Part shown: positions 1-29,426 of the stretch, in pieces
How the letters are laid out: every line of letters begins with the position of its first letter
Numbering within the stretch: the stretch's first letter is position 1
Source: an uncultured Holophagales bacterium
Lineage (GTDB): Bacteria > Acidobacteriota > Thermoanaerobaculia > Multivoradales > UBA5704
NCBI GenBank assembly: GCA_963842525.1
Contig: CAWJGT010000034.1
Location: 416,001 to 480,000 of the forward strand
Length of the DNA stretch: 64,000 nucleotides
Reading direction: 5' to 3'
Made by a program: the position numbers and the translations under genes
The notes under the pieces: generated by a model
The model's input: only the letters and a program-made list of their open reading frames with translations
Databases searched by the model: none
Told to the model about the DNA's origin: nothing

Positions 1-1461
1 GGCTCGCTCCTCGGAACGCCTCTCTATGTGGCGCCGGAGGTCATCCGTCATTGCGCGGCGAGCGGCGCCTCCGACCTCTACTCGTTCGGGGTGATCGCCT
101 ACGAGGTCCTCAGCGGAAGGCCACCTTTTCAGGGCTCGACGGCGGAGGTCCTGGCCGGTCACCTGAACCAGGAGCCTTCTCCGCCGGCTCACTCGGGAGC
201 GCCGCTGTCCGAGGAGATTTGGCAAGCCCTGGAGGAGCCTCTGCGGAAGGACCCCGCGCTACGCCCTGCCAGCGCGCGGGAAGTGGTGAAGTCGATCCGG
301 CGTGCGGCGGAGCGAGAGGCCCTGGCAAGGTGGCGGGCTGTCGAAATCCCGCGCCGGGCATGGCTCTCCGCCCTCCTGATCGCGATCTTTTTACTCGCGG
401 CCCTCTCGCCCTGGCCCGAGCTCGCCGCCGAGCGCTGGGTCCGCGACCTGAGGCTGCGGGCGGTGCCGACGCGCGCGCCGGACCCACGGATTCTCCTGAT
501 GACGCTGGACGATGCTCGTCCGGAAGGCGGAGAGATCCCTCTTACAGACCAGGCCGACGAGATCGGGAGCACGCTCGCCCGTGTTCTCGCGGCAGGGGCA
601 CGCGGCGTGGCGATCGACCTTCTCCTCCACTCCAAATGGGCTGATTCGCCCGCTTTCTCGGATCTGGTCGTCCGGCATCCAGAGTCCCTGACCCTCGCGG
701 CCTTTTCAGAGTCGGATGGAGAGGTGACCGGCACGGACTGTGTCGCCGGTTTGACCGCGACAGCTCTCGGCCCGGAGCGAGCCGCAGGCCTCTTCGGATT
801 CGTGAACCTCGACGAGGATCTGGACGGCTTGGTCCGCCGGGGCCGGACGGGGTACCGCGACCGTTCTGGCCGTGTGCGCCCCTCCTGGGCAGCCAAAGCT
901 GCTGCGTCGCTCAACACCGCCACAGGCCGGCCGGGCACCGGCGAGACCTTCTGGCTCGATCTCCGGATCGACTGGACCCGCTACACAAGGATCTCGTGGC
1001 GGGACGTCTCCGCCGTTCTCGACCGGACCCCGGAGCTCTTCCGCGACCGGCTCGTCTTGGTGGGAGCAGGCTTTTTGGTCTCCAGCGATGATTACTATCG
1101 GGTGCCGCACCAGCTGGCTGGAGACACGGCGGTCTCGGGGCTCACGCTCCAGGCTTTGCTCGTGGACACCATCGCCGCCGGGCTGCCGGTCCGTGAGCCG
1201 GACAGTGCACCGATCCGCGCCACGGCAGCTCTGTTGACGGGCCTCGCCCTGGCGGGCGTCCTCTGCGGGCGGCGGCCGGCCCTCTTTGTGGGCTCGCTCG
1301 CCACTGCGGCGGCCGTCTACGTCGGTCTTTCCTTTCTCGTCTTCAGATGGACGGGCTGGATGCTCCCGGTCTCGTCCCCCTTGCTCCTAGCCCTGCTCGG
1401 GCTTGTCCTGGCGCTGGCCGTACGGCGGATGCTGCCGCCAGGACCGGAGGTCTCGACATGA
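1..1461 (+). CDS. Ser/Thr protein kinase fused to CHASE2 sensor domain (5' partial)
   Basis: Frame is open from base 1: GSLLGTPLYVAPE (activation loop/APE), SDLYSFGV, RPPF and DPALRP kinase C-lobe motifs; then a TM segment, CHASE2 motifs (PDPRILLMTLDD, GARGVAIDLL, GFVNLDEDLDGLVRR, FRDRLVLVG) and three C-terminal TM helices. Confidence 0.88.
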   Translation, partial: GSLLGTPLYVAPEVIRHCAASGASDLYSFGVIAYEVLSGRPPFQGSTAEVLAGHLNQEPSPPAHSGAPLSEEIWQALEEPLRKDPALRPASAREVVKSIRRAAEREALARWRAVEIPRRAWLSALLIAIFLLAALSPWPELAAERWVRDLRLRAVPTRAPDPRILLMTLDDARPEGGEIPLTDQADEIGSTLARVLAAGARGVAIDLLLHSKWADSPAFSDLVVRHPESLTLAAFSESDGEVTGTDCVAGLTATALGPERAAGLFGFVNLDEDLDGLVRRGRTGYRDRSGRVRPSWAAKAAASLNTATGRPGTGETFWLDLRIDWTRYTRISWRDVSAVLDRTPELFRDRLVLVGAGFLVSSDDYYRVPHQLAGDTAVSGLTLQALLVDTIAAGLPVREPDSAPIRATAALLTGLALAGVLCGRRPALFVGSLATAAAVYVGLSFLVFRWTGWMLPVSSPLLLALLGLVLALAVRRMLPPGPEVST

Positions 1462-4400
1462 AAGTATTTCGTACCGTCGGCCTCAGCGTGCTGCTGTGCC
1501 TTCTCCCCTACCACGAAGCTGCATCCGCCCCGCAACAATCCACCAAGCCAGTGGCTCTCATCTATGCGCTCACGGGCGAGGCCACGCTCACAGTACCCGG
1601 CGGCGGGCGCCAGCCGCTGCGCCTCTTCGATCGTCTCTCAGTGGGCACGGCCCTGGAGGTCGGAACGAGCTCACGTCTCGCGATTGCCTTCGCCAACGGG
1701 CGCCGCTACGAGCTCGGCGAGCGTTCCCGCGCGACGCTCGGGCAGTCGGATCTCGCCTCCCGAAGCGGGCCTGTGCGGCCTCTCCCCCGGGTCCCTCCCC
1801 TCCCCCGCATCCTGCCCATTGCCGAGGAGGAACATCCCGGGCCGCGCCCTGGCGCCCCACTCATCCGCGCGGAGCGGATCACGGGACTTTATCCCCGCGA
1901 TGGGGCGGCGACCCTCGCTGCAGCGACCACTCTCCGCTTCGAACCTGTCAACGGCGCCGGGAAGTACCGGATCGAGGTACAGGATCGTCAAGGAAACGTG
2001 GTTTTCGCGACCGAGACGACCGCGTCTTCGGTGGGTCTCTCGCCGAAGGCCCTGCAGCCCGGCAAGCGCTATGACTGGACTGTCCGAACCATCGACCGAG
2101 TGGGCCCTGTCGCGCAGGGGGAGGCAGGCTTCGTCACCCTGCCTGCGCGGGTCGCCGAGGAGCGAGAGGCACTGCGGAAGGCCGTCGAGAGGCTCGGAGA
2201 CAAAGAGCTGCTGGCGCTGCTTGCCGAGGTGGATCGGAGCCTTGGGCTCCTGGACGAGATGGAAACCGGCGTCCTGATAGAGGAGGTCACGCCAGAATCG
2301 TTGGGAAGCCGGGCGGGCCTTCAGGCCGGCGATCTCCTCCTTTCCTGGTGTCGGGCGGAAGACTCGACGGAACACTGTCTCGCCGAAGGGAAATTCGAAT
2401 CTCCTTTTGATTTCGAGGAGATGGATATCGAGCAGGCGCCGCGGGGCGGAGTGAAAGTCTTCGGGAGGCGGGGTGCGGAGAGCAGGACCTGGGCCTTGCT
2501 CCCGGGCTCTCAGTCGATCCGGGTCAGCCCCATGCGACAAGGAGCTGGAGAGGATTGGCTCAACGTCTGGTTCCTGTCACGTGAGGCAGGCGCTCTCGCC
2601 GAAGCCCGGCAGTGGCCGCAAGCCGACTCCCTTTACAAAGAGGCTGTCGATCAGGCTCAGCTCCTGCACGAGGAGAAAATCGAAGCACAGATCCTGAAGG
2701 CCTGGGGGAAAACCTTTCAAAGCCGCGGCACCTGGGAGAAGGCGGAAGATCTCTATCGCCGGTCTCTGGAGCTCGACCGGTCCGCCGGGCGTGAGCTGGC
2801 GGTCGCCTGGACCCTTGATAACCTGGGAGTCATCGCCACCCATCACGGCAGCTCTCAGGAAGCCGAGACCCTCCTCGGACAGGCTCTGGAGATCCTCGAA
2901 AAACTGGCACCGCAGAGCTCCAGATTGGCGGCGAGTCTGAGGAATCTGGGGCACGTGAGGCACATCCAGAGAGACTTCGCCTCTTCGGAGCCGCACCTCG
3001 AACGCGCCTTATCCATCCTCGAAGAACTGTCCCCCTGGAGCTTCGACACCGCGGACGCCCTGAGCTACATGGGCAGAGCCAAGTTGGAACGCGGGAATCA
3101 GGCGGAAGCCGAGGAGCTCTTCCGCCGCGCCAAGGCGATCTGTGAGCGGGTCCGACCCGAAAGCCTCGAAATGGCGAATGTCCTCCACAACCTCGGGCTG
3201 ACGGCGGTGTACCGGGGAGACGACGAGGCCGCGGATCATTTCTCGAAACGTGCGCTGGCGATCCGAGAGAGGCTCGACACCAGCGGGGCAACGGTTGCGA
3301 GCACTCTGGAGAGCCTGGGGCTCCAGGCGTACGGGCGTGAGGATTGGAAAGATGCCGAGGAGTACCTCAATCGCGCCGTCAGCCTGAACGAGAAGCTGGA
3401 GAACGGTCTGCCCCTCGCAAAAGCCCTCCAGAACCTCGGCGCCGCCGTCCTTCGCCGGGGCAAGGGTGATTGCGGCGCGGCCGAGAAACATTTCCAGCGC
3501 TCCCTCGCCATCCGGCAGGAGCTCGACCCCGACAGCCACAGCGTCGCCACGAGCCTACGGAGCCTTGGGTTTCACGGCTTGCAATGTGGTGACCTCCCAA
3601 AGGCAGAAGAGAACTATCAGCGAGCCCTGGTCATGTACGAGAGGCTTGGAGGAACCGGTCACAACTTGGTGTTGCACGACCTGGGCTGGACCTACCGGCA
3701 ACTGGGCCGCTTGTTGGCGGCTGAAGAAGCCCTCTGCCGAGCTGCCGACCTCTTCGAAGCTGGGCGGGAAAGCTCCGGCCGGGAAGTCTACAACGAAGCG
3801 TACTTCATCGATTGCCTCCTTGCGCGAGTCGAGACCGGACGGACGGCAGAGGCCTTCCACGTCCTCGAACGCGGGCGGGCTCGCGTGTTCCTCGAGCAGT
3901 TTGCCGAACGGGATCTCCTGTTCTCGGCCGACCTTCCAGCCGAGATCGCCCGCAGAAAAAGAGAGCTCGCCCATGAGATCGAGTCCACCCAAGGGGCTCT
4001 CGCCCGGCTGAGCTCGACCGAGAACACTGCCGATGCTGAGCGCCTTCTCAACCATCTCCGGGAAACTCGCGACCGGCAGCGGGTGCTCACGGCAGAGATC
4101 CGCAAGGCTCTCCCCGTTTCGCTTCCGTGCACTACCCCCAGCCTCTCGACCTCGACGGCGCGCGCCGAGCCCTCGACCCAGGCACCGTGCTCCTTGCGTA
4201 TGCCGTCGGCGAGGACAAGAGCTATCTCTTCGTGATCCAGCCACCGGATGTCCAAGGCTCCGGGTTTTCGGTCTTTCCTCTCGCGACGAGTGAGCAGGCG
4301 CTCCGGGAAGCCGTCCGATCGTTCCGCAACCTCCTGCAGAAAAGAGATTCCGACAGATCTCATCTGACCTCCCAGGCAAGCGCTCTCTACGATCTTTTGA

Positions 4401-5284
4401 TCGGACCGGCCGAAGCCCAGATTGCAGCGGCGAAGCGAATCCTCGTCTCGGCCGACGGCCCCCTCCACACGCTGCCCTTCGCTGCGCTCGTGCGCAAGGG
4501 CCGGTATTTCGTCGAATGGAAGCCACTCCATTCCATCCTTTCGGCGACCGTGTATGCGGAGCTGAAGAGGACGCGCCGCACATCCGCAGACCCCGCACAG
4601 AGCCAGCTCATCGCCTTTGGCGATCCGATCTATCCGCCGCTCCCGAAGGATCGAGAAACCGCACCCGCGCCGACTCTCGAAATCCTCACAGCGGTCCGCC
4701 GCGGCCTCTCTCTCGATCCGATCCCCGCCACTCGGAAAGAAGTCGAGAGCATCGCATCGCTTTACCCCCGGGCACGGATCTACCTGGGCGCAGAGGCAAC
4801 CGAGGAACGGGTCAAATCGGTCGGCTCAGAGGCCCGCCTTCTTCACTTTGCATCCCACGGTCTGTTCAACGAGCGCTTCCCCCTCGACTCCGCCCTGGCC
4901 CTAACCATCCCCCCACATCCGGCGGAAGGCCAGGATAATGGACTTCTGCAGGCGTGGGAAATCCTCGAGAGCCTGCGCCTGGACGCCGATCTCGTGACGC
5001 TTTCCGCCTGCGACACGGCGCTCGGAAAGGAAAGCGGCGGCGAAGGGCTCGTCGGCCTGACTCGGGCCTTTCAGTACGCCGGGGCACGTTCGGTCCTCGC
5101 TTCCTTGTGGAGCATCTCCGATATCTCCACAGGCGACCTCATGAAGAGTTTCTACGGCCATCTCCGGACCGGCCAGGCAAAAGACGAAGCTCTGCACCTG
5201 GCCCAGATCGAGCTGATCCGTTCTACCAAGTTCTCCCATCCCTATCACTGGGCCGCCTTCCAGCTCTCGGGCGACTGGAAATAG
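1458..5284 (+). CDS. Secreted PDZ/TPR/CHAT (caspase-like) protease; single frameshift near 4108
   Basis: ATG 1458 overlaps the upstream TGA (ATGA); signal peptide MKVFRTVGLSVLLCLL; PDZ-like segment (GVLIEEVTPESLGSRAGLQAGDLL); multiple TPRs; adding one base near 4108 joins ORF 1347..4235 to 4127..5284 (KASPRFASVHYPQPLD); CHAT His/Cys motifs HFASHG and LSACDT; C-terminal HPYHWAAF. Confidence 0.9.
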
Positions 5285-5298
5285 CTCGACCCACTCGG

Positions 5299-5347
5299 GT
5301 CTCAAGATTGAGACACTGCACCAGGCCAAGAGTGTCAAATGTGATAC
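5299..5347. promoter_or_regulatory. Paired palindromic enhancer (UAS) copy 1
   Basis: GTCTCAagatTGAGAC (5299-5314) and GTGTCAaatgTGATAC (5332-5347), starts 33 bp apart. Confidence 0.7.
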
Positions 5348-5379
5348 ACGGTGTGTCGTACGCCCGGCGAAATATGATT

Positions 5380-5395
5380 CGGCATGTACGTTGCA
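5380..5395 (+). promoter_or_regulatory. sigma54 (-24/-12) promoter
   Basis: cGGCATGTACGTTGCa: GG-N10-GC with a good match to TGGCAC-N5-TTGC; lies between the UAS pair and the gene at 5476. Confidence 0.72.
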
Positions 5396-5475
5396 CTTGG
5401 CCGGAGCGTCATCAACGGTGCGGCTGGGAGTCATTGCCGGCACCTGGCGCTGCACACAAGAAGGGAGAAGCACCT

Positions 5476-5823
5476 ATGAAGCGGATTCTGATCGGCCTCG
5501 TGATCGCCACCTTGTCCTCCGTGCCGTCGTATGCGGTCTGTACCAACAAGCCGATTGCCGTCACGGATGTCTTCAACATGCCGAAGAACACGACTCTGAC
5601 CATCCTCGACGCTACCCTGGCAAGCAATGATATCGACGGCGACGGCGATACCTTGTCCGCAGGGGTCCTGGGCCCACCCACCTACGGATCCTTTTGCGGC
5701 ATCGGTCCGGGCGGAGTCTGCTATCAACCGCCCACCAACTTCACGGGGTTGGACTCGATGCCTTACTACGTGACAGACGGCTGCTCCACGACCTACGGAA
5801 CGATCCTGATCTTCGTACAGTAG
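5476..5823 (+). CDS. Small secreted Ig/cadherin-like domain protein
   Basis: RBS AAGGGAG; signal peptide MKRILIGLVIATLSSVPSYA; NKPIAVTD..LASNDIDGDGDTL..YQPPTNFTGLDSMPYYVTDG pattern typical of bacterial cadherin-like/Big_9 repeats. Confidence 0.8.
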   Translation: MKRILIGLVIATLSSVPSYAVCTNKPIAVTDVFNMPKNTTLTILDATLASNDIDGDGDTLSAGVLGPPTYGSFCGIGPGGVCYQPPTNFTGLDSMPYYVTDGCSTTYGTILIFVQ

Positions 5824-5830
5824 CCCGGAC

Positions 5831-5868
5831 CGGGCCTCCCCTCGCGGTGTGACCCGAGGGGAGGCCCG
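5831..5868 (+). terminator. GC-rich hairpin after the Ig-like gene
   Basis: CGGGCCTCCCCTCG (5831-5844) pairs with CGAGGGGAGGCCCG (5855-5868); no clear U-tract. Confidence 0.55.
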
Positions 5869-5883
5869 CGCGGCCCGCTGTGC

Positions 5884-5931
5884 GTTTCAGGAATGAGACG
5901 CGCAACCTTCCAGCAGTCTCGAAAGTGAGAC
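5884..5931. promoter_or_regulatory. Paired palindromic enhancer (UAS) copy 2
   Basis: GTTTCAggaaTGAGAC (5884-5899) and GTCTCGaaagTGAGAC (5916-5931), starts 32 bp apart. Confidence 0.62.
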
Positions 5932-5944
5932 CGCCCGCGCGGCA

Positions 5945-6028
5945 GGGTCTGGTATCGATACTTGCGATGGAGGAACAGAGCCCGACACCTGCGTCAACTG
6001 CGAGAGCGTGAGCAACTGTAATCCGTAG
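5945..6028 (+). pseudogene. C-terminal remnant of a third hemolysin-type Ca-binding repeat paralog
   Basis: Manual translation GSGIDTCDGGTEPDTCVNCESVSNCNP* matches the C-termini of the genes at 6331 (DTLDGGTEFNTCVNGETVSNCP*) and 6967 (GTDTCDGGTETDTCSCESTTNCP*). Confidence 0.8.
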
Positions 6029-6147
6029 AGAACCCAAGCCGCCACGTCCTGACCCCGGGGACTCTCTGCACGCGCCTGAATGGAGGGTCCCTTCTCCTCA
6101 AGAGCGTCCTGACGTTCCAGACCCCCAGCCTCAAGGGCCTTCCCTGA

Positions 6148-6196
6148 GTCTCAAGATTGAGACGCAGGATCAAGCCAAGAGTCTCAGCGGTGATAC
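6148..6196. promoter_or_regulatory. Paired palindromic enhancer (UAS) copy 3
   Basis: GTCTCAagatTGAGAC (6148-6163, identical to copy 1) and GTCTCAgcggTGATAC (6181-6196), starts 33 bp apart; spacer ends in GCCAAGA as in copy 1. Confidence 0.72.
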
Positions 6197-6259
6197 GGCG
6201 GCGCGGCGCCCTCTGGGTCAAGTCCTTTGCTTTCAACAGATTCTCATTGCTACCCCCTC

Positions 6260-6274
6260 TGGAACGGACTTTGC
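6260..6274 (+). promoter_or_regulatory. sigma54 (-24/-12) promoter
   Basis: TGGAACGGACTTTGC: GG-N10-GC, upstream of the ATG at 6331. Confidence 0.72.
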
Positions 6275-6330
6275 CCTGGGCTCAGTCACCTCCGGCGTGG
6301 TGCCGGGCATACCTCGAAAGGAGAAGAGAG

Positions 6331-6894
6331 ATGCAGACAGACGCACGCAAGATTCTCATGTTCGCAGCACTGGCACTCCTCGTCTGGGGCACGCCACGAG
6401 CCTTCGCGATTCCGCCCATCTGCGACGAAGAGGGGGTCGTGCTGCACGGCACCCCTGGGAACGACGTGATCTATGGAACCTGCGCCCCGGACGAGCTCTA
6501 CGGCGGGGCGGGCGACGACACCCTCTACGGCTTTGACAGTGGCGACATCCTGCGGGGAGAAAGTGGCAGCGACACCAGCGATGGCGGTGCCACCTTCAGG
6601 AGCGGGAGCGATTTCATCGAAGACTTTGACGGCAACGACATCGCCTGGGGCGGCCCCGGCAACGACGAGATCTATACCCACAAGGGCTATGACGAGCAGC
6701 ATGGAGGGAACGGAAACGACTTCATGACGGGAGGCGGTGACGGCGACACCATGTACGGTGACGCGGGGAGTGACACTCTCTGGGGGGAGAAAGGATATGA
6801 CTATCTCGATGGAGGCACCGAAACCGATACTCTCGACGGAGGTACGGAGTTCAACACCTGCGTCAACGGTGAGACGGTCAGCAACTGTCCATAG
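6331..6894 (+). CDS. Secreted hemolysin-type (RTX-like GGxGxD) calcium-binding repeat protein
   Basis: RBS AAGGAG; signal peptide ending PRAFA; repeats GGAGDDTLY, GGPGNDEIY, GGNGNDFMT, GEKGYDYLD. Confidence 0.85.
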   Translation: MQTDARKILMFAALALLVWGTPRAFAIPPICDEEGVVLHGTPGNDVIYGTCAPDELYGGAGDDTLYGFDSGDILRGESGSDTSDGGATFRSGSDFIEDFDGNDIAWGGPGNDEIYTHKGYDEQHGGNGNDFMTGGGDGDTMYGDAGSDTLWGEKGYDYLDGGTETDTLDGGTEFNTCVNGETVSNCP

Positions 6895-6966
6895 AGAAGG
6901 CGGCCCGCGATGTCTTGCGCGTCTCCGGCGTGGTGCCGACGACCATCATTCGAAAGGAGAAGACAG

Positions 6967-7503
6967 ATGCGGCAGACAGGTCTGCGAATCGTCCTCGTCG
7001 TTGTTTCAGGTCTCCTCGCCGGGGTCGTGCCTCCGGCATTTGCAACCTGCAACTGCACAACGACCATCCTGGGCACCAACGGTGCCGATTCGATCACCGG
7101 AACGTCGGCCGCGGAGTGCATCTATGGCCGGGATGGCGACGACTACCTCAATGGAGCGGATGGGAATGACTGCATCTTCGGTGAGGGCGGCAACGACATC
7201 AGCGTCGGGGGCTTCGGGAACGACACCATCAACGACGACGTAGGAAGCGACACGGCCTATGGCGACGAGGGCGGCGATGACATCTTCACCCATCAGGAGG
7301 TCGATTATCAGTACGGAGGGAATAGCAATGATTTCATGACAGGAGGCCAGGGAGGGGATGTCATGTCCGGCAACGGAGGGAATGACACTCTCTGGGGAGA
7401 GAAGGACAACGACTCCCTGACCGGAGGAAACGGTACCGACACCTGTGATGGAGGCACGGAAACCGACACCTGCTCCTGTGAGAGCACGACCAACTGCCCC
7501 TAG
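6967..7503 (+). CDS. Secreted hemolysin-type calcium-binding repeat protein (tandem paralog)
   Basis: RBS AAGGAG; signal peptide ending PPAFA; repeats GRDGDDYLN, GEGGNDIS, GGFGNDTIN, GNGGNDTLW; leader TCCGGCGTGGTGCCG...CGAAAGGAGAAGA shared with the 6331 gene. Confidence 0.85.
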   Translation: MRQTGLRIVLVVVSGLLAGVVPPAFATCNCTTTILGTNGADSITGTSAAECIYGRDGDDYLNGADGNDCIFGEGGNDISVGGFGNDTINDDVGSDTAYGDEGGDDIFTHQEVDYQYGGNSNDFMTGGQGGDVMSGNGGNDTLWGEKDNDSLTGGNGTDTCDGGTETDTCSCESTTNCP

Positions 7504-7532
7504 AGGTCCCCAAGCCGTCACGATCTGACTCC

Positions 7533-7570
7533 GGGGCCCTCCGATCGCGCCGATCGAAGGGCCCCCCTTT
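7533..7570 (+). terminator. Hairpin with short T-tract after the second RTX-like gene
   Basis: GGGGCCCTCCGATCG-cgc-CGATCGAAGGGCCCC followed by CCTTT. Confidence 0.5.
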
Positions 7571-7587
7571 CCTGGAGAGGCACCCTG

Positions 7588-10500
7588 ATGACCCGGCGAT
7601 CGACGTTCTCTCACGTTTTGCTCCCAGCCTTTCTCCTTCTTGGCGCTCCTTTTGCCCGCGCTGCCGAAATCGAGGTCCGCGGGACGATTCTGCGTCCGTC
7701 GGGCGAGCCGCTGCCGGGTGTGCGCGTCGAGCTGGTGGCCGAGCTTTCCCGGTACGATCTGGCCCAGGCAGCTCTTCGCGGCGAGGTTCGTCCCGTCCCA
7801 CTGGCGACAGCGGCCTCAGATCACCGAGGCCATTATCGATTGGTTGCGCCGAAAGCTGGAATTTTCCGCGTCCTCGTCGACGCCGAAGGGTGCTTTCCTT
7901 TGGCGGCCGGACCTTTGGCGCTCACCGGCTCCACCGACCTCGCCCCGGTCGTTCCGCCTGCGGCCTCTCAGATGCGTGTGCGCGTGCTGGACGCCGAAGG
8001 CCGGCCCATCGCCGGCGCACGGGTCCAGGCGCGCGGCCCGGCCGAGCGGCGCTTTGCGCGCGAGCTCCCGAAGCCTTGGGGCATCGCCCCCAGGACGGCG
8101 CGGACGGACGCGGACGGGCAGGCCCTCCTGCCGCAACTGCCCGGAGAGTCGCTCGAGGTCCTCGCCTCTCATGCGGGCGCGACCGAGGCCCGGGCGAAGG
8201 GAGCGAGCGCAGAGGCGATCCTCCGTCTGAGCCGCGAAATCACTCCTCACAGCGTCGCCCTGCCGGTGCTCTCCACCATCGCAGGGAACGTGCGGACAGG
8301 TGGAAGAGCCCCTCTCGCCGGCTCGCTCGTCTGGTCGCCCGAGGATCCCGGTCTGTGGACCATGACGGATGCGACGGGACAGTACCGCCTCGCCGTGCCT
8401 CCGGCGGTGCGCTCGTTGCGGGTCGAGGCCGCGGGCTTCCTCTCCCGGCAGGCCCGGCTGACTGAAGCCGACATCCGCCGCGGCCGGGCGCCGACCCTCG
8501 CCCTCCAGCCGGCCACGTCCCTGGTGGGCACGGTGCTCGATGAGAGCGGTACTGCGCTTGAAGGGATCGTCGTCGCGGCGACCCTGGAGGGCGGACCTCC
8601 CGGACTGTCGCCCTCGGCCGTCGTCGCCTGGGGCTCCAGCGATCGAGCGGGCCGGTTCGAGCTGCGTGGCTTGACGCCCGGAACCCCCTATCGGGTCGAG
8701 GAGGCGCAGGCCGGTCTCTTTGCGGAGCCGCAAACGGTGATCGCCTCGCGGCCGGGTGCTCCGCCGCCCCCTCTCCGGCTCGTGCTCGCCGTCTCCCAGG
8801 GAGTGCGCGGGCGGGTGCTCGATCTTGCCGGCCAGCCGATCCCCAAAGCCGAGATCCTCCTGCGAGGGGCTCGTCCCCCGAAACGCTCGGACCTCCAGCC
8901 GATCGAGCCCCTGCGCCCCGAGGAGGAGCCGTATCGCGCATGGACCGACGCGCGCGGCGTCTTCACCGTCCGTGAGCTGCCGGCACTCGACGTCGATGTG
9001 ATCGCTCGCAAGCCCGGCTTTACGCCGTCCGTCGTCCGCGGTCTGCAGATCCGTCCGGGCAAGACGCCTCAGCCGGCCGGCGACATCGTGCTGCGGCCGG
9101 GAGTTCGCCTCGCTGGCCGGGTCGTCGATTGGGCCGGCCGCGGGATCGCGGACGCGGCGGTCCACCGGGTCCAACAGATCGATGATCTCGACCGGCTGGA
9201 GGCGCGCCTGCGCGAGCGCCTGCCGGCTGCGGTCAGCGCCGGCGACGGCAGCTTCGTCCTCGGCGACCAGCCTTCAGGAGCCCCCCTGAACCTGGTCATC
9301 TCCGCCCAGGGCTTCACCCCGGCGGGCCTGCGCGGCGTGCGCGCTCCGGTCGCCCAGCCGGTCGTCGTGCGCCTCGATCCGGCAGCGCTGGTTCGCGGCC
9401 GCGTCGTGGATGAAGACGGTGCGGGCATTTCGGGAGCCAGGATCTTTCTTGAATGGCGGAGCAGCTTGCCGGAAAAGCCGAGCGTCCAGACCGGCGAGCA
9501 TGCCGCGCGCACTGCCGTCTCGGACCGCGAAGGACGCTTCGAGCTGCGGGGCGTGCCGGAGGGATCTGGTGAAGTCACCGTCGAGGCCGACGGGTTCGTC
9601 GCCTCGGACTCTTTCCCGGTGGTGATCCCCCAGGATCCCAAGAACGAATGGACCGTGGTCCTCCAGCGCGGCGCGATCCTCGAAGGGAGGATCTCCACCC
9701 GGCAGGGCGATCCGGTCGGCGGTACGCGCGTCACCGTCGAGAGTGCCCAAGCTCGGTCGGACGATGACGGAAAGTATCTTCTCGCGGGCGTCCCCCTCGG
9801 GGAGTTCGAGGTCGAGGTCGTTCATGCCGACTACCCGCGCCAGGTCCGCATGCTGAAGATCGAGAGCGGCTCCAACGTCCTGGACGTCCAACTCCAGGAC
9901 GGCCACCGGGTGACCGGAATCGTGCTTTCCGCGGCGCGCGAGCCGGTCCCGGGAGCCTCCGTCTCTCTGGAGACCCTGGTGGAGGGACGAGATCAACGGG
10001 CCTACCGCACCCATACCGGCATGGCCGGCACCTTCGAGCTTCCCGACCGTGGCGGACGGCGAATACCAGATCGTGGCGTCGGCCGACGGCTTCGCCGAGG
10101 AAAAGCCGTCCGAGACCATCACGATCCGCGGCAGCGATCGGAACGACCTCGAAGTGATCCTCGATCGCGGCGCCTCGATCGTCGGCCGCGTCCTCGGGCT
10201 GCCGCGGGAGGAGCTGGCCTGGGTCGAGGTGTCCGCCGAGGGCGACGATGTGGATGCCGGGAGCCCCGTCGTCCGAGTGGACGCCGAAGGCCGCTTCGCC
10301 TTGCGCCACCTTGCGCTGGGCAACTGGCAGGTGCGCGCACGGCACCCCCAACGCCAGCGTTCCGTCGAGGTGCGGGCCGTCCTCCGGGCCCACGGCGAAG
10401 AGGCCGTGCGCGATCTCCGGTTCGGTGGCGGCTTGAGCCTCACGGGCCGGGTGGTCCTCGCCGACGAGCCGCTCGCCGGCGCCCTGGTGAGCCTCCGCGC

Positions 10501-11437
10501 CCAGAGCCATTCGCTCGAGCGGAGCGCCGTCACGGACTATCAGGGAGAGTTCGAGCTCACCGATCTCGACACCGATCGCTATCACCTCGGAGTGATCGAT
10601 CGCAAGACGCTGGCGCTGCACAATGAGGACATTGTCCTCGACGAGGACCGGCAGGTCGAGATCCAACTCCGTGCCGGAACGGTCTCCGGGAACGTCCTCG
10701 ACAGCTCCAGCCGGGCACCCGTCGCAGGAGCGCTCCTCGCCCTCAGGCCGCTCGAGGGGGCCGACTTCATGATCGCCAGCACCTCGGAGGAGGACGGCAG
10801 CTTCCTACTGCCCAAGGTCCCGGAAGGCCGCTACCGGCTCGCCGCGCGCGCCGACGGCTACACATCTACCGAGCAGGAGGTCGAAGTCGCAGGCGCTGGA
10901 GTCGCCGGCCTCGACGTGAAGCTCGCGCCCACCCAGGGGCTCGATCTCATCGTTCGTCTGGCATCGGGCCAACCGCCGCAGTGGGTGCATCTGCGTGCGA
11001 CGGCCAGCGGCACTCTCTCGGAAACGCGCAGGGTCGGAGCGGATGGGCGGCTGAGGCTGGCAACATTGCCTGCCGGCGAATGGGACCTCTGGATCGCAGC
11101 TCCCGGAGGCGCCTCATTGCAGACCAAAGTAAGGGCTCCGGGAAAGACCGTGACGATCGATCTTCCACCAGCGGGCCGTCTCTCGGTGCAGGTGCCCGAG
11201 CTTGCGGAGTCCTCTCTTCTGGCGACCGTGGCCGTGTCGGGAGAAAGCCGGCAGCCGTTCTCGACTCTCACGTTCGGCGGTGAGATCTCCTCCTCCTGGC
11301 CCCTGAAGGCCGGCACTGCGGTCGTCGAGGGCCTCCCTGCGGGGCTGTGGACGGTGACGGTGCTCGCGCCGGATGGCCGGACCTGGACCAAGGCGGTTGC
11401 GACAACCGGGAGCGATGGAGCGGCGATCCTGGAATGA
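7588..11437 (+). CDS. Large secreted protein with many carboxypeptidase-regulatory-like domains; frameshift near 10043
   Basis: Signal peptide; repeated GRVLD-xxG-xPIxGARV...TDxxGRFxLxxLPxG modules; removing one C at 10042-10044 joins ORF 7588..10626 to 10049..11437 (ELPTVADGEYQ). Confidence 0.85.
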
Positions 11438-11475
11438 AGGCGGCTGCGGGGAGCTGCCCTCGCGGAACAGGAATC

Positions 11476-13108
11476 TCAGGCATCCCGGGTGATTCCGAGA
11501 GCCTTCAGGTATCTGTGGAAGGTCGCCTTGCTCAACCCCAGGCTCTCCCGCGCTGCCTTGACGCTGCCGCCGTGGCGCTCCAACCGCGCGAGGATCAGCT
11601 CGCGCTGAAAGGTGCGCATTGCATCGTGCATGGTGGCCCCCTCCCAGAGGAGGGGGCCGGCCTTCGGATTGGGCGCGGCGTGCAGGGCCTCGGGATAACA
11701 GCCTTCAATCAGGCCACGGTCGATTTGTGCGCCCGGCCGGGCATGGATGACGAAGAGCGAGCAGGCCCGCGAGACCTCCCGCACGTTGCCCGGCCAGTCG
11801 TAGGAGATCAGTGCTCGCAGCGCCTCCTGGCTGAATCCGAGGGTCCGCTTGCGGTGCTTGCTCTCGTGGTGACGCCGGAAGTGCTCCAGCAGCAGGGGGA
11901 TATCCCACGGGCGCTCGCGCAGGGGAAGGAGGCGGATCGCGAGAGTACGGAAACGATCGTAGAAGTCGGCTCGCAGGGTGCCTTCCCGAACGGCCTCGTC
12001 CAAATCGCGATTGGTCGCCAGGAGGACGGCGACGTCGACCGGGATCTCGCGCGTCTGCCCCACGGGCACGACGCGATGGTTCTCCAGGACCCGGAGCAGA
12101 TGGGCTTGCGCCCGCAGCGACAGCTCTGCGACCTCGTCGAGGAAGAGGACCCCGCCGTCGGCAGCCCGGAAGAAGCCGGGCTCATCCATCAAGGCGCCGG
12201 TGAAGGATCCCTTCTTGTGGCCGAAAAACCGGGAGGCGGCCAGCTCGTCCGTGATCTCGGCGCAGTTGACGACCACCAGGCGTTTGCGGCGGCGCGAGCT
12301 GTAGGCGTGGAGATAGCGGGCGATCAGGTCCTTGCCCGTTCCCCGCTCGCCCAGGAGCAGAATCGGCTCGGGGTTCTCCGCTTCGAGCGCGGGGATGTAG
12401 ATCTCGTGCAGCGTGCGACGCAGCGCCTGCGTGTGCGCCGAGTCGCCCAGAATCTCCGGCGCGTCGTCGCTCCCCTTGGCCGCTTCAAGGAGATCGCGGA
12501 GCTCGCGCTCCTGGCGCTCCTGGCGGAGATAGAAGCCGAAGATCCGGCCTGCCGCAGTGGCGTACCCCTCCAGCCAGGCGCGATCGTCTTCTCCATAGGC
12601 TTCGGCCACGCTGCTGTTCTGGAAATAGACCACGGCGAGCACCACGTCGCGCAACGGATCGCAGATCGGGGCGCACAGCACGCTGAACTGGCTTCCCTCG
12701 AGCGACGGGGTCTTGCGACGCGTCCTCCTGCAGCCGGGGATCCTCGATCAGCTCCGGCCGGCCGGTCTCGACGACCCGCTGGATGACTGAGGGGCTCACC
12801 CCGCGGACCGACTCTCCCCGCTCGCAAGCCTGCGATCTGCTCCGGGGTGAGATGGCCCAGGGTGTGCACGGCGCGCAGGCCGAGGGGCTCGGCTGGTTTC
12901 CACCAGGAGCAGGAGCGCCTTGCGTGCGCCCGAAGCCCCGGGCGGCGGCCTCGAAGGAGGCCCGCAACGCCGCTTCTTCGCCGCCGTCGCTGGACAGCAC
13001 GGCGAGGAGCTCGTTCATGGCTCCGAGGAGCTGGGCGTAGTCGCGCCCCGGCGGTTGGGACCTGGAAGCTGTCACGACTCTGGAAGTATCAGATAGAGCG
13101 GTGTCCAT
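11476..13108 (-). CDS. GAF-domain sigma54-dependent transcriptional activator (bEBP, Fis-type HTH); about four frameshifts in the GAF region
   Basis: RBS GGAG and ATG 13108; Walker A GERGTGKD, GSFTGA loop, GVLFLDEV, RADFYDRF, YDWPGNVRE, C-terminal HTH (AARESLGLSKATFHRYL); GAF pieces (VSPSVIQRVVETGRPELIED, SVLCAPI, VVYFQNS, DDRAWLE) are spread across frames. Confidence 0.85.
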
Positions 13109-13239
13109 GCAACTCCGTTCGCCAGTCCCAATTCTGCGCCCGCCGGGGTTCCCGCGGGTTCCAAAGATGGAACGCCCCATGTATTCATGCGCGGACAAGG
13201 CGTTTCATTTCAGGAGCTTGTGGCCCGCCGGTTGCCTGG

Positions 13240-13911
13240 TCCAGGTATTGGCCAGCCGTATCCCACGGTCGCCGACTTGCGGATCTATGCCCGTCATGTC
13301 GTCTCAAGGCTGGCCGGCAATCACGTGATCTTCTCTCCCACCTTTGACCGGGCACCGGACATCGACCCGGACAACTGCACGCCGACTTCCGCCAACGCGA
13401 GCTGCCGGATGCGGTTCGTCGGCGAGGAGATCAAGAGCACCTCGCCGCGGCACCTGGTCACCAACCACTGGGCGGGCAGCCTGGCGGTCGCCTCGATGCA
13501 GCCCTTCCAGGACCAGGCCTGGCTCGACTTCCAGATGTTCCAGAGCGGCCAGGCCAAGTCCGCGTCCAACTGCAACACGACCACGCAGCTCCAACTCATC
13601 ACCCAGCGGGCCCGCGAGATCCCGTTGACCCTGTGGGGCTATACGCCGACCAAACCCAGCGTGAACGGCGAATCCATCCACGACGGCGTCAACGGCGGCT
13701 GCCTCGGAACGCTCCACTACAACGCCTACCGCGCCCGGCAGACCGGCTACCTCTCACTGTTATCGGGAGCGACCGGGTACACCTACGGGGTGCAGGGCGT
13801 CATGGACTGGGGCGCCTTCGGATCGAGTTACACCGCGGGCATGGCGCGGCCTTCGAATTTCCAGATGGAGTACCTGGGGAACGTCTTCCGCGGCGTCTTC
13901 GAGGGCCTTGT
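13240..13911 (+). pseudogene. Fragment of a DUF4038/apiosidase-like glycoside hydrolase family protein
   Basis: WLDFQMFQSG, PTKPSVNGESIHD, RARQTGYLSLLSGATGYTYG resemble the C-terminal half of DUF4038; no credible start, and similarity stops where the convergent regulator ends. Confidence 0.55.
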
Positions 13912-13919
13912 GCCGCCGC

Positions 13920-14558
13920 CTACACCAACCCCTTGCGCTGCGCGTAGACCGCCAGCTCGAGGCGGCCGTCTACGGCCGTCTTCTGATAGATGTTGTGCAG
14001 GTGGATCTTGACCGTACCCTCGCTGATGAAGAGCTTTTCAGCGATCGCCCGGTTGCGCAGGCCGCTGGCGACCATGCGGACGATTTCGAGCTCGCGGAGC
14101 GTCAGAGTCTCGGCGGCCTCGAGGATGCGTTCCTCCCTCTGCAACAGCCGGCTGAGAGCGCGGTCCGTCGATCCCTTGTCCAGCCAGCGGCGGCCCGCAT
14201 GGACCTCCCGGACCGCCTCGACGAGGAGCCGTGGCGCCATCTCCTTGAGCACGACGCCGCCGACCCCGAGGCGCAGGGCTTCTACGAGCTGATCCTCCCC
14301 CAAAGCCGCCGTCAGCAACACCACCCGCGTGAGCAGCCCACCCGCCTCAATGGCTCGCAGAACGTCAAGACCGTCGCCCCGCGGCATCCGGATGTCCAGG
14401 ACCCCCACATCGGGACGGTGCACCCGAATGGCTCGCAGAGTCTCCTCCCCGTCCCGGCAGCGGGCCACGACCTCGAAGTCCTGCTCCAGCCGGAAAAGCT
14501 GCTCCAACCCGTCGAGAACGATCGGATGGTCGTCAGCCAGCAGCAGGCGGATCGGCAA
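13920..14558 (-). CDS. NarL/LuxR-family response regulator
   Basis: IRLLLADDHPIV, LDIRMP, LTLRELEIV...SEGTVKIHLHNIYQK; TTG 14558 follows RBS AGGGAGG. Confidence 0.92.
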   Translation of the reverse strand: MPIRLLLADDHPIVLDGLEQLFRLEQDFEVVARCRDGEETLRAIRVHRPDVGVLDIRMPRGDGLDVLRAIEAGGLLTRVVLLTAALGEDQLVEALRLGVGGVVLKEMAPRLLVEAVREVHAGRRWLDKGSTDRALSRLLQREERILEAAETLTLRELEIVRMVASGLRNRAIAEKLFISEGTVKIHLHNIYQKTAVDGRLELAVYAQRKGLV

Positions 14559-14560
14559 CG

Positions 14561-16258
14561 TCAGGCCCTCCCTTCGCACGGCAGCATGATATCGAGCCGC
14601 GCCCCGGCCGGGCTCGACTCCAGGGCAACCGAACCGCGTAACGACGTGACCCTCTCGAGCAAGGTGCGCGGCGCGAAGTCGCCCGCGCTCAGCTCCGCGT
14701 ACGTGAACTTCCCCGAGACCGGAAATCCCCGCCCGTTGTCGGCAATCATGAGAGAGAGGTGGCCGTCTTCTCCGTCAGCGATCTCGACTTGCACCGCCGT
14801 TGCATCGCCGTGCCGCACGGCGTTGACCAGGGCTTCGCGCACAACCAGATAGACCTCGCGCGCCAAAGGCTCCGGAATCCCCTTCAGCCCCTCGGTCCGC
14901 AGCTCCGCCCGAAGCCCCCATTCCAGCTCCATGCGCTGCACCAGCTCGGCCACCCGGGCGTCGAGGTCGCGGGCCTTATCCGCCGGCGCGAGCGGCGGCG
15001 GCTTCAGCTCCTGGATGAAAAAGCGCAAGTCGCGCTGCTCCAGAGCGATCAGCCGCTGCAGGGCGTCGAGCGCTTCGCGGGCCCGCTTCGGATCCTCGTC
15101 GAGCAGCCCCCGGACCGCGGCCAGCCGCAACCCGATCCCAGTCAACGACTGGAGGACACCATCGTGCAGGTCGCGCGCGAGTCGGAGACGCTCCTCCGTC
15201 GTCGCGGTCTCCTGGAGGGTCTGGTTCAGATAGAAGTGATCGAACCGCGCCGCCACCACGCTGGCGACCACCTCTCCGAGCACCAGGTCGTCGGATGTCA
15301 TGGCCGCTTTGTCAGCGAAGAAGAGGCGTCCCTCGACCGATTCTCCCTGGAGAGGAAGCGAAAGGACCACCCGCAGAGAGAAGCGATCGCGCAGTCCTGC
15401 GTCCAGCGGCAAGCCGCGCCAGCGCTGGAGCCCGTCGCGGCCGCGGCGGAGCACGGCCGGCTCCGGCACCGTCGCATCCAGGCACAGGAAGCTGTCCTGC
15501 GAAAGCGACTCTGCCACCAGACCAGCAAAGGACTCGGGAGCGGACCGGCTCCACGAGAAGGCACCGCCGCTCCAGGAAGCCAGATAGAGCCATGGCTCCT
15601 CCCGCTCCACCCAGGCAAGCAGCACACGCGGAGCCCCCATAGCCTGGGCGGAGTGCTCCAACAGGCCCCTGACCAGCACCTCGATCTGCCGCGGGACATC
15701 CTGCGGCCAGGCCGCCAGGTGCGCCATCTCGCGCCGCGTATGCTCCTCATGGGAGCCGAGATAGCCGAGGAGGACGGCCACGACGACCAGGTAGACGCTG
15801 CGGACGATGACCGGATAGACCTCGAAGCCAGGATCGTTCAGGACTTCCGCGACCCACAGGCCGACCCCGACGAACATGGCAAGGGACACGATAGCCGTCC
15901 AGAGCGTCCCCCGCCACTGCCACCGTAGCGTGGCGCAGACCAGGGCAAAGACAAAGTAGGCGGTGAACGGGCTCGCCGGCCCCCAGGTGAAGTAGATGAA
16001 GAGTGAAAAGAAAATCAGATCAAACACGTGGGTGACCAGGGCCACGCGGTGCGACGGCGCATCCCAACGCCAGACCAGGAGGGCGATCGCCGCCGCGTAC
16101 ACGACGTAGGCGGCCAGCAGCGAATAGGCGATGTCGGCGTACTTCGCCGGCTCGGCCGGATCGAGCCAGACGGCGAACAGGGAAAAGATCGCGAGGACCA
16201 CCCGTCCGGCGGCGATCAGACGCTCAGCACGGCTCTGCGGCGAATACAGGGGCTCCAT
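14561..16258 (-). CDS. Membrane sensor histidine kinase (HisKA_3 type)
   Basis: Several N-terminal TM helices; ERLRLARDLHDGVLQSL H-box; REALVNAVRHG and DNGRGF ATPase motifs. Confidence 0.9.
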   Translation of the reverse strand: MEPLYSPQSRAERLIAAGRVVLAIFSLFAVWLDPAEPAKYADIAYSLLAAYVVYAAAIALLVWRWDAPSHRVALVTHVFDLIFFSLFIYFTWGPASPFTAYFVFALVCATLRWQWRGTLWTAIVSLAMFVGVGLWVAEVLNDPGFEVYPVIVRSVYLVVVAVLLGYLGSHEEHTRREMAHLAAWPQDVPRQIEVLVRGLLEHSAQAMGAPRVLLAWVEREEPWLYLASWSGGAFSWSRSAPESFAGLVAESLSQDSFLCLDATVPEPAVLRRGRDGLQRWRGLPLDAGLRDRFSLRVVLSLPLQGESVEGRLFFADKAAMTSDDLVLGEVVASVVAARFDHFYLNQTLQETATTEERLRLARDLHDGVLQSLTGIGLRLAAVRGLLDEDPKRAREALDALQRLIALEQRDLRFFIQELKPPPLAPADKARDLDARVAELVQRMELEWGLRAELRTEGLKGIPEPLAREVYLVVREALVNAVRHGDATAVQVEIADGEDGHLSLMIADNGRGFPVSGKFTYAELSAGDFAPRTLLERVTSLRGSVALESSPAGARLDIMLPCEGRA

Positions 16259-29000: not shown

Positions 29001-29204
29001 GCGGTAGCCAGGCTGCTCGTCGAGCCTTCGAAACAGGTTGTCAAAGAAGCGGATCAGGCTGCGATTGGTGTATCTGGCGGTGAAGATCCACTCACGGTCC
29101 CAGTGGTTGTGGGTGATGAGGTGGATGGTCCAACCGTCGAGAGCCCTGCGTTGGCTGCCCCGGGTTGCCTCGACCTGAGGCCCGTTGGCCATGATCGCTG
29201 TCAC
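26033..29204 (-). CDS. GH38 alpha-mannosidase (MngB-like); frameshift near 27457
   Basis: GTG 29204 after RBS GGAGGT; HNHWDREW, FVLDGQ, SGEALVRNL, DNFGQ, LLNHTHDDVCGC, DAGDTYDYS, DHRLRVLFP, LTLLRAVGWL; removing one base joins the two ORFs. Confidence 0.88.
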
Positions 29205-29426
29205 GAGTACCTCCTGAAAACTTCCATCTGCTCGGAGCGGCCTGAGAAAGCGGATGGCTCGCGCCCGCGCACTGCTGCGCCTCGGGATCGCGCCCCGTGA
29301 CCGGGAAGATCCGGACCGGAGAGGTTCAGCACAGCGTACCATGCAGACAGGAACTAGCTCGTGGAGAATGACGGACGCCCCCCCCCCGTGTGGTACCCTC
29401 GCTGAAAAAGGGAGGTGGAGGTGGAG

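Follow-up and report, generated by a model that had tools for sequence, protein, structure and literature searches.

A candidate cassette of CHASE2 kinase, CHAT protease and sigma-54 activator with exchangeable exported cargo in Acidobacteriota

The window analyzed here is a stretch of 64,000 nucleotides (G000:C34:416001-480000) from the genome of an uncultured Holophagales bacterium (9.95 Mb, 34 contigs, 67% G+C), at the beginning of which lies a locus that comprises a Ser/Thr kinase with a CHASE2 receptor domain, a predicted secreted protein with a CHAT domain, several genes for exported proteins interspersed with repeated sigma-54 control modules and a convergent gene for a sigma-54 activator. 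The Hanks-type kinase-CHASE2 receptor is encoded on the plus strand; the 3' part of its gene occupies positions 1-1461 of the window, and the whole gene, an open frame of 694 amino acids that begins before the window and likely starts at Met10, lies at G000:C34:415377-417458. All the characteristic motifs of the kinase domain (Pkinase, 154.7 bits) are intact (AVK61 with the catalytic Lys, HRD156, DFG180 and APE219), the CHASE2 domain scores 72.9 bits versus the cut-off of 26.3, and the hydrophobic segments at residues 324-351, 612-631, 635-656 and 659-688 yield the 1+3 transmembrane layout typical of CHASE2 receptors. The stop codon overlaps the start of the next gene in the tetranucleotide ATGA at 1458-1461, in agreement with the initial annotation of this DNA, made from the sequence alone, which described a kinase-CHASE2 gene translationally coupled to a CHAT gene.

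The second gene (gene B; 1458-5284, plus strand, with a frame change at about 4109-4139 that is discussed below) encodes a predicted secreted protein which consists of, in this order, a signal-peptide-like N-terminus (detected by inspection), a conserved region of about 240 residues that we denote the N-domain, a PDZ domain, TPR repeats and a CHAT domain. The scores for TPR_12 and CHAT are 179 and 246 bits, respectively, and the match to PDZ_6 is weak (E 5e-4); the CHAT domain contains, by inspection, the motifs HFASHG and LSACDT, which we take to be the catalytic His and Cys motifs of this family. Thus, the earlier characterization of this gene as a signal-peptide PDZ-TPR-CHAT gene with both catalytic motifs stands, the PDZ match being its weak component. 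The N-domain matched no family in Pfam or NCBIfam, and its homologs, which form 140 clusters, are all annotated as hypothetical proteins without a Pfam domain. A model of this domain (predicted local distance difference test score, pLDDT, 78) contains two beta-sandwiches, the first spanning residues 29-117 and the second, which is fn3-like, 137-230, and a helical hairpin; in fold searches, the 'cell surface anchoring domain' 5ix9 scored best for the first sandwich (Z 10.4) and fn3 for the second (Z about 10), these being matches of the generic beta-sandwich/fn3 type only. Searches of the gene B protein at E up to 1 gave no match to FecR and likewise none to LysM.

Across the genome, we detected 63 CHAT matches, many of them in open frames of more than 1000 amino acids, and only two CHASE2 matches, namely the kinase of the locus and a CHAT-CHASE2 fusion on contig C7. 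This fusion protein (833 amino acids; G000:C7:21009-23507, equivalent to L002:7009-9507, minus strand), in which CHASE2 is C-terminal to CHAT, represents a second, independent association of the two domains within the same genome.

The gene on the minus strand at 13108-11476 encodes a GAF-AAA+-HTH (helix-turn-helix) sigma-54 activator, that is, a bacterial enhancer-binding protein. The Sigma54_activat match scores 180 bits (cut-off 20.2), and the protein contains the Walker A motif GERGTGK, the LFLDE motif and the GSFTGA loop. The HTH segment falls just under the cut-offs of both HTH_50 (22.7 bits, cut-off 27) and HTH_8 (21.7 bits, cut-off 22) and is strongly conserved among orthologs. In this assembly, the part of the gene that encodes the GAF domain contains four frame changes within about 290 bp, each +1 (at about 12925, 12889, 12833 and 12716); the orthologous activators are intact and consist of 531-536 amino acids. 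The N-terminal 200 residues scored under the Pfam cut-off for GAF_2 (25.8 versus 28.6 bits), and the search of PDB sequences with the GAF profile gave matches at E 0.2 only. A model of the N-terminal part of an intact ortholog (pLDDT 72) matched, with a Foldseek probability of 1.00, the GAF domains of Nlh2, Nlh1, NifA, DosS and PDE5/6, the best structures being those of Nlh2 (4g3v, TM score 0.69) and NifA (8jrc). The convergent GAF-AAA+-HTH activator predicted in the initial annotation is thereby corroborated. The sigma-54 gene itself was identified through the single Sigma54_DBD match in the genome, at C34:61948-62424.

The control modules of the locus are built to a common plan, with two 16-bp palindromes of the consensus GTYYCA-N4-TGRRAC placed 33 bp apart (hereafter, enhancer pair) and a GG-N10-GC element about 63 bp further on. 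All four enhancer pairs of the locus are on the plus strand. Pair 1 (5299-5347; sites at 5299 and 5332, GTCTCAAGATTGAGAC and GTGTCAAATGTGATAC, with starts 33 nt apart) begins 14 nt past the stop codon of the CHAT gene, and its -24/-12 element (CGGCATGTACGTTGCA, 5380-5395) lies 32 nt beyond the pair. Pair 3 (6148-6196; sites at 6148 and 6181, GTCTCAAGATTGAGAC and GTCTCAGCGGTGATAC, 33 nt apart) is followed by such an element (TGGAACGGACTTTGCC, 6260-6275) at 63 nt. Pair 2 (5884-5931; sites at 5884 and 5916, GTTTCAGGAATGAGAC and GTCTCGAAAGTGAGAC, 32 nt apart) is an orphan, with no GG-N10-GC element in the next 160 nt. Pair 4 (sites at 13125 and 13158, GTCCCAATTCTGCGCC and GTTCCAAAGATGGAAC, 33 nt apart) is accompanied by two promoter-like elements, TGGCCCGCCGGTTGCC at 47 nt and TGGTCCAGGTATTGGC, with an imperfect -12 part, at 63 nt, pair and elements together occupying 13125-13252; given that this pair is located just past the activator gene, the locus extends beyond the convergent activator with which the initial annotation, correct as to the gene and its orientation, had let it end. 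The exact 16-mer GTCTCA-N4-TGAGAC is present in three copies in the 9.95 Mb of the genome, two of these within the locus, and a relaxed search (up to two mismatches per site, sites 31-35 nt apart) gave 11 pairs genome-wide, of which four belong to the locus. The region upstream of the kinase gene contains neither an enhancer pair nor a good sigma-54 promoter in the five loci inspected.

Among the pairs outside the locus, a perfect one was found at G000:C11:161269-161318 (L069:5269-5318; GTTCCAATTCTGAGAC and GTCTCAAAAATGAGAC, 34 nt apart), next to a type I methylase gene and with no convincing -24/-12 element or secreted-protein gene nearby. Two identical weaker pairs (two mismatches per site) are located 4.5 kb apart at G000:C34:703346 and 707898, possibly within a repeated element.

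The genes that follow these modules on the plus strand encode exported proteins of several kinds. Gene C (5476-5823), behind pair 1, encodes a 115-amino-acid secreted Big_9/cadherin-like protein (Big_9, 52 bits) with a signal peptide (by inspection) and is followed on its 3' side by a terminator-like inverted repeat. Next to the orphan pair 2, we identified the remnant of an RTX-family cargo gene (5962-6110), which comprises the last 20 or so codons and the 3' flank and aligns with the 3' end of gene E and the hairpin downstream of it. Gene D (6331-6894), behind pair 3, encodes a secreted RTX calcium-binding repeat protein of 187 amino acids (HemolysinCabind, 72.8 bits), and gene E (6967-7503) its paralog of 178 amino acids (63.6 bits), a tandem duplicate located 72 nt behind D that, by inspection, includes a duplicated part of the 5' leader of D and lacks a separate promoter module. 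Hence the claim that small secreted-protein genes are preceded by repeated enhancer/sigma-54 modules holds for pairs 1 and 3, with their promoters, and fails for gene E. The large repeat protein noticed in the locus from the start is a secreted protein with CarboxypepD_reg repeats (7588-11437; 264 and 143 bits in two frames, with the break at about 10041-10046). Behind pair 4 lies a fragment of an apiosidase-like glycosidase gene (13187-14011) that matches only positions 125-314 of the 320-position model; a complete DUF5060-Apiosidase gene is the predicted cargo in the related locus L062. Genes D and E were also considered as candidates for type I secretion, and this was rejected: their products contain the repeats but start with signal-peptide-like sequences (by inspection), and there are no ABC/MFP exporter genes in positions 1-13300 of the window.

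The evolutionary conservation of these features was assessed in two sets, one of 41 related genomes (own, genus, family and order levels) and the other of 39 activator loci, one genome per species, that were retrieved with an alignment of the GAF domain, the close relatives being mostly metagenome-assembled genomes from soil; the survey of control elements covered the window and 41 related loci, that is, 42 loci with 725,709 bases altogether. In this survey, 293 single sites were found, and the spacing of sites was sharply peaked at 33 nt (45 cases, compared with four each at 32 and 34 nt, one at 35 nt and no more than two at any other distance). A GG-N10-GC element (score of at least 7 of 12, on one side of the pair) is present 60-64 nt past the proximal site in 44 of the 51 pairs, in 28 of them at exactly 63 nt. 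The position relative to the CHAT gene is also conserved: in 14 loci and in the window, no more than about 30 nt separate the 3' end of this gene from the start of an enhancer pair, and in four further loci a pair is found in the divergent region just upstream of the TPR-CHAT gene.

The type of half-site changes together with the HTH domain. All 13 loci in which the HTH helix contains K/R-A/P-T-F possess GTCTCA-type half-sites, some of them along with GTTCCA, and only two of the 18 loci with K/R-T/V-T-F (L057 and L064) have GTCTCA-type half-sites, the remainder being of the GTTCCA type; these loci are related, so that the comparison is no statistical proof. Because the half-site type tracks one HTH residue across loci, in the manner that such binding predicts, the activator of the locus is predicted to bind the paired palindromes.

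More than 20 unrelated cargo families were found behind predicted promoters in the relatives, a count that omits a few antisense artefacts of the automated choice of the first gene, and the idea of exchangeable secreted proteins, put forward from this one locus, is strongly borne out. The largest family is that of RTX-repeat proteins (15 loci), which have a Cys-rich C-terminal motif in common, and in seven loci (the window, L033, L040, L041, L057, L059 and L066) an RTX gene is followed by a CarboxypepD_reg giant. The other cargo of the relatives includes an S8 subtilase, GH5 enzymes, a DUF5060-apiosidase and giant proteins with Ig repeats, as well as peptides of 47-65 amino acids, both small peptides (L050, L052 and L062) and Cys-rich ones (L053 and L058). 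Four of the small cargo peptides have an N-terminus resembling a Gly-Gly leader, and one of the two Cys-rich peptides scored just under the cut-off of a lanthipeptide-leader model (20.9 versus 22 bits). In G022 (L021:5986-12012), the cargo is an exporter set of HlyD, C39-peptidase ABC and ABC proteins together with leader peptides; the peptides of the relatives and this exporter set suggest bacteriocin-like products, or products similar to ribosomally synthesized and post-translationally modified peptides, that are controlled by the same activator. In G013, one enhancer pair precedes the activator gene itself.

The kinase and the activator are tightly associated in the related genomes. With a kinase ortholog defined as a match extending through CHASE2 and an activator ortholog as a match with E ≤ 1e-100, the former was detected in 11 and the latter in 14 of the 41 genomes, and all 11 are among the 14; in 10 of the 11, both genes are located on one contig within 15 kb, and in the remaining one (G005) the kinase gene is at a contig end. 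The gene arrangement varies, the two genes being either convergent, with 1-14 kb of differing cargo between them, or divergent and adjacent (G020 and G021), and some genomes, among them G004 and G019, encode the N-domain in a separate gene after the kinase, with TPR-CHAT on the other strand. Among the 39 activator loci, a CHAT ortholog was found in 24, the N-domain in 19 and kinase/CHASE2 in 15, and at least one enhancer pair in 29. When three loci with TPR or kinase at the edge are counted, the activator has a CHAT, N-domain or kinase gene no more than 10 kb away in altogether 27 of these loci; L038, with a CHAT gene 14 kb away, would be the 28th. The 11 loci without a kinase or CHAT gene are mostly short or end near the activator, and three (L046, L049 and L058) have flanks of 9-10 kb still without either gene. 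The gene-neighborhood survey on which the initial annotation had made its proposal depend thus gave a positive answer, as the activator and the enhancer modules do co-occur with kinase-CHASE2/CHAT genes (11 of 11 genomes; 27 of 39 loci).

Beyond this group, 401 Acidobacteriota genomes were sampled with the N-domain profile, which matched in 27 of them, including an unpublished genome on which no conclusion is based; the nine best distant matches are stand-alone proteins of about 300 amino acids. In all nine of these loci, a kinase gene is adjacent to the N-domain gene or within 4 kb of it, and in eight the kinase contains CHASE2. In G084 (L078:5996-14917), the sensor part of the kinase is Reg_prop/Y_Y_Y, the N-domain gene follows, and TPR-CHAT is convergent. 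In G171, genes for a kinase-CHASE2, an N-domain protein and then an FHA-AAA+-HTH activator lie on one strand, and in G068 the kinase-CHASE2 and activator genes overlap by 4 nt. FHA domains bind phosphothreonine. Judging from these gene contexts, the kinase and the N-domain form the invariant core of the system, which CHAT often joins, and recruitment of a sigma-54 activator has taken place on at least three occasions, the input domain being GAF, FHA or another one. This repeated recruitment is the strongest argument we have for communication between kinase and activator, and the FHA activator of G171 and the 4-nt overlap in G068 both lend indirect support to such signaling, which we infer for the locus itself.

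Taken together, these observations point, with reasonable probability, to a lineage-specific Acidobacteriota cassette by which a signal from the envelope is linked to sigma-54 transcription; the family in which it is found here bears the label Thermoanaerobaculia. The sensor would be the membrane Ser/Thr kinase, which is predicted to expose CHASE2 to the periplasm, and its partner a Sec-exported protein with the N-domain, made together with the kinase and, in this genome, fused to a PDZ-TPR-CHAT caspase-like protease. A periplasmic cue would be sensed or generated through the N-domain/PDZ/TPR/CHAT protein and CHASE2 and would change the kinase activity, and the kinase would control the cytoplasmic GAF-AAA+-HTH activator, most likely by phosphorylation, such that the GAF-mediated repression of the activator is relieved. 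The activator would then assemble on the palindrome pairs and drive formation of the sigma-54 open complex at the GG-N10-GC promoters, resulting in expression of exported products that differ by genome, in this case the putative cargo consisting of the Big_9 protein, two RTX-repeat proteins, the CarboxypepD_reg giant and the glycosidase fragment. As to the protease, we favor a role in producing, eliminating or gating the signal that CHASE2 and the N-domain would perceive in the periplasm, with PDZ and TPR presumably choosing the substrates. The part of this scheme that connects the activator, its sites, the promoters and the cargo is very probably correct; the whole chain from cue through kinase and activator to cargo appears somewhat likelier to be right than wrong, the inferred role of the protease being its weakest link.

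Several observations weigh against this scheme. The genomes compared share ancestry and do not count as independent samples, and inherited synteny could account for some of the linkage. In the three activator-bearing genomes G001, G011 and G013, no CHASE2 match was found (0 of 3), and G001 and G013 keep the full GAF part; since 3 of the 14 genomes with the activator are without CHASE2, the activator works, or at any rate persists, without the sensor. In G011, a one-contig genome with no CHASE2 genome-wide, the activator frame (L025:10603-12452) lacks the GAF part; an enhancer pair with its promoter and an RTX cargo gene are retained, whereas the 10 kb around the activator contain neither a kinase nor a CHAT gene; in its genus-mate G021, the kinase and the GAF part are both present. 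Removal of the N-terminal domain makes activators of this type constitutive, and this single case fits a GAF domain that serves as the input domain for the sensor, whereas G001 and G013 are contrary to it. Among the nine distant loci, an adjacent sigma-54 activator is present in two and TPR-CHAT is nearby in four. Given that the activator of the locus has a GAF domain, rather than FHA or a receiver, it possesses no evident phospho-acceptor or phospho-reader, and given that two Cys residues of the GAF part are invariant in five orthologs, this domain may have a ligand of its own. Finally, three genes of the locus are out of frame in the assembly, and independent sequence was available for no more than two of the six frame changes.

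One way to accommodate part of these data would be two independent neighboring systems, with the GAF activator sensing a small molecule or the redox state in the cytoplasm and running its cargo regulon alone, and the kinase-CHASE2/CHAT pair signaling elsewhere. The lack of CHASE2 in 3 of the 14 activator-bearing genomes, the retention of the activator, enhancer pair and RTX cargo in G011 with no kinase or CHAT gene in the vicinity and the seven of nine distant kinase/N-domain loci without an adjacent activator all fit this scenario, as does the similarity of the GAF fold, which is nearest to the ligand-regulated GAF domains of Nlh1/Nlh2 and NifA. Nevertheless, we consider it unlikely, given that the kinase ortholog was never found without the activator (11 of 11), that their linkage survives inversions and insertions of 1-14 kb of unrelated DNA, that the CHAT gene directly adjoins an enhancer pair in the window and in 18 other loci, and that two independent kinase-activator operon arrangements exist elsewhere in the phylum. 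A different division of labor would make CHAT a protease for maturation or quality control of the cargo rather than for signal perception, the PDZ and TPR domains capturing the exports and the kinase reporting their load only. PDZ domains bind C-termini, and a role of this kind would agree with the Cys-rich C-terminal motif common to the RTX-family cargo, with the insertion of cargo genes directly at the CHAT gene and with the leader-bearing small peptides among the cargo of the relatives, including the one that comes close to the lanthipeptide-leader cut-off (20.9 versus 22 bits). The cargo, which ranges from glycosidases and a subtilase to Ig-repeat giants, however, is too diverse for one processing need; the leader peptides of L021 are accompanied by their own C39-peptidase exporter, RTX cargo is kept in G011 without CHAT, and across the phylum it is the kinase, rather than the cargo, with which the N-domain is associated. 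On balance, this possibility appears quite improbable. More speculative still than the chain of sensing, kinase and activator that we prefer is its extension to a 'secretome switch', in which the periplasmic caspase-like protease and the double beta-sandwich adaptor would respond to a protein or peptide from outside the cell by activating the CHASE2 kinase, which in turn would license the GAF activator, while the CHAT-adjacent module would serve as a docking site for gain, duplication and loss of cargo by recombination, the cargo comprising exoenzymes, calcium-binding surface proteins and leader peptides with exporters. We regard this extension as doubtful, albeit conceivable; if true, it would represent a modular export program of soil Acidobacteria, possibly responsive to neighbors or prey.

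The frame changes, one in the CHAT gene (about 4109-4139) and one in the repeat protein gene (about 10041-10046), both located by comparison with orthologs, in addition to the four in the activator gene, could also mean that the locus is decaying in this genome and that these three genes are pseudogenes; the orphan enhancer pair with its gene remnant and the truncated glycosidase gene in the same locus would be in keeping with decay. Independent sequence was available from one public DNA run, which contained 21% of the sampled words, and no RNA run was listed; the contigs of this run leave 3997-4440, 7549-10656 and 12863-12948 uncovered, so that two of the six changes were checkable. An independent contig that corresponds to 12685-12862 and is otherwise identical has one base fewer at 12716 and at 12833. 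Because the extra base is absent from this contig at both positions covered, we interpret the frame changes as erroneous indels in the assembly, which is proven for these two of the six. The translated pieces are still 76% identical to the intact ortholog, and other genes of the assembly are split in a similar manner, as would be expected of indel errors, including several CHAT domains and a gene for a GH38 alpha-mannosidase. Hence decay of the locus is highly improbable. Programmed frameshifting, considered as another cause, was rejected in view of the same contig, which lacks the extra base at 12716 and 12833.

The GH38 gene (window 26036-29342, minus strand) consists of two overlapping open frames split at about 27430, with the N-terminal and middle domains in one and the C-terminal domains in the other, probably another one-base assembly error. 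Among the genes adjoining the locus, those for a LuxR-type response regulator and a HisKA_3 histidine kinase flank it directly (window 13923-16258, minus strand). Upstream of the locus (L001:337-6711) lies an unrelated cluster of cyanophycin synthetase, cyanophycinase (S51) and isoaspartyl peptidase, along with a racemase.

If the proposed cassette is real, it supplies the missing context for CHASE2 and secreted CHAT domains, with a small sigma-54 regulon as a testable output. The promoter architecture is unusually rigid and easily assayed, and the HTH residue that tracks GTCTCA versus GTTCCA half-sites would be a natural specificity switch. The enhancer modules can be used to mark otherwise anonymous exported products that are predicted to be co-regulated, such as glycosidases, proteases, RTX-like proteins and leader peptides, and kinase-to-sigma-54 wiring would be extended to the abundant, mostly uncultured soil Acidobacteria.

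In the open-access literature searched for CHASE2 together with CHAT, FecR, sigma-54 or enhancer-binding protein, we found no description of this combination, as the initial annotation had supposed; several known systems share parts of it. In Myxococcus, Hanks-type kinases feed FHA-domain sigma-54 activators, and the distant G171 locus, with its kinase-CHASE2, N-domain and FHA activator genes, resembles this wiring; the activator of the locus, in contrast, has GAF rather than FHA, and its kinase has an extracytoplasmic CHASE2 domain and a co-encoded, predicted periplasmic protease partner. The architecture GAF-AAA+-HTH is the same as in NifA, NorR and Aquifex Nlh1/Nlh2, which are the best structural and NCBIfam matches of the activator, but the latter falls below every equivalog cut-off (NorR, 262 versus 476 bits), and it differs from them in binding site and regulon as well as in the kinase and protease linked to it. 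In the Burkholderia system, the gene for a CHASE2 histidine kinase overlaps that for a periplasmic FecR/LysM partner, with a transcription factor in the operon (PMC5192318). The likeness lies in the overlap of a CHASE2 receptor gene with the gene for a signal-peptide-bearing partner; the partner in the window has no FecR or LysM match, and the proposed output is Ser/Thr and sigma-54 signaling rather than His-Asp signaling to an OmpR-type regulator. A metacaspase-CHASE2 fusion protein is described for Trichodesmium (PMC3501461, PMC2853523), and together with the CHAT-CHASE2 fusion on C7 it illustrates the association of a caspase-like protease with CHASE2; the protease of such fusions is predicted to be cytoplasmic, as an output, whereas here it is a separate co-translated protein with a signal peptide that is predicted to be periplasmic. 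The closest analog in logic is the PEP-CTERM-associated PrsK/PrsR/PrsT system, in which a membrane sensor kinase, a sigma-54 activator and a TPR protein have the same phyletic distribution as a DNA motif (Haft et al. 2006, PMC1569441). In that system, the motif precedes many single genes for exported proteins, with a spacer to the -24/-12 element that averages 62.8 nt (PMC1569441), to be compared with about 63 nt here. Membership of the locus in the Prs system was rejected, given the scores of 224 versus 502.6 bits for the PrsR model and 23 versus 312.2 bits for the PrsT model, and no PEP-CTERM family is among the Pfam matches of the window cargo. Compared with the Prs proteins, the sensor of the present cassette is a Ser/Thr kinase with CHASE2 rather than a histidine kinase, the activator contains GAF rather than a receiver domain, and the TPR protein additionally contains CHAT, PDZ and the N-domain.

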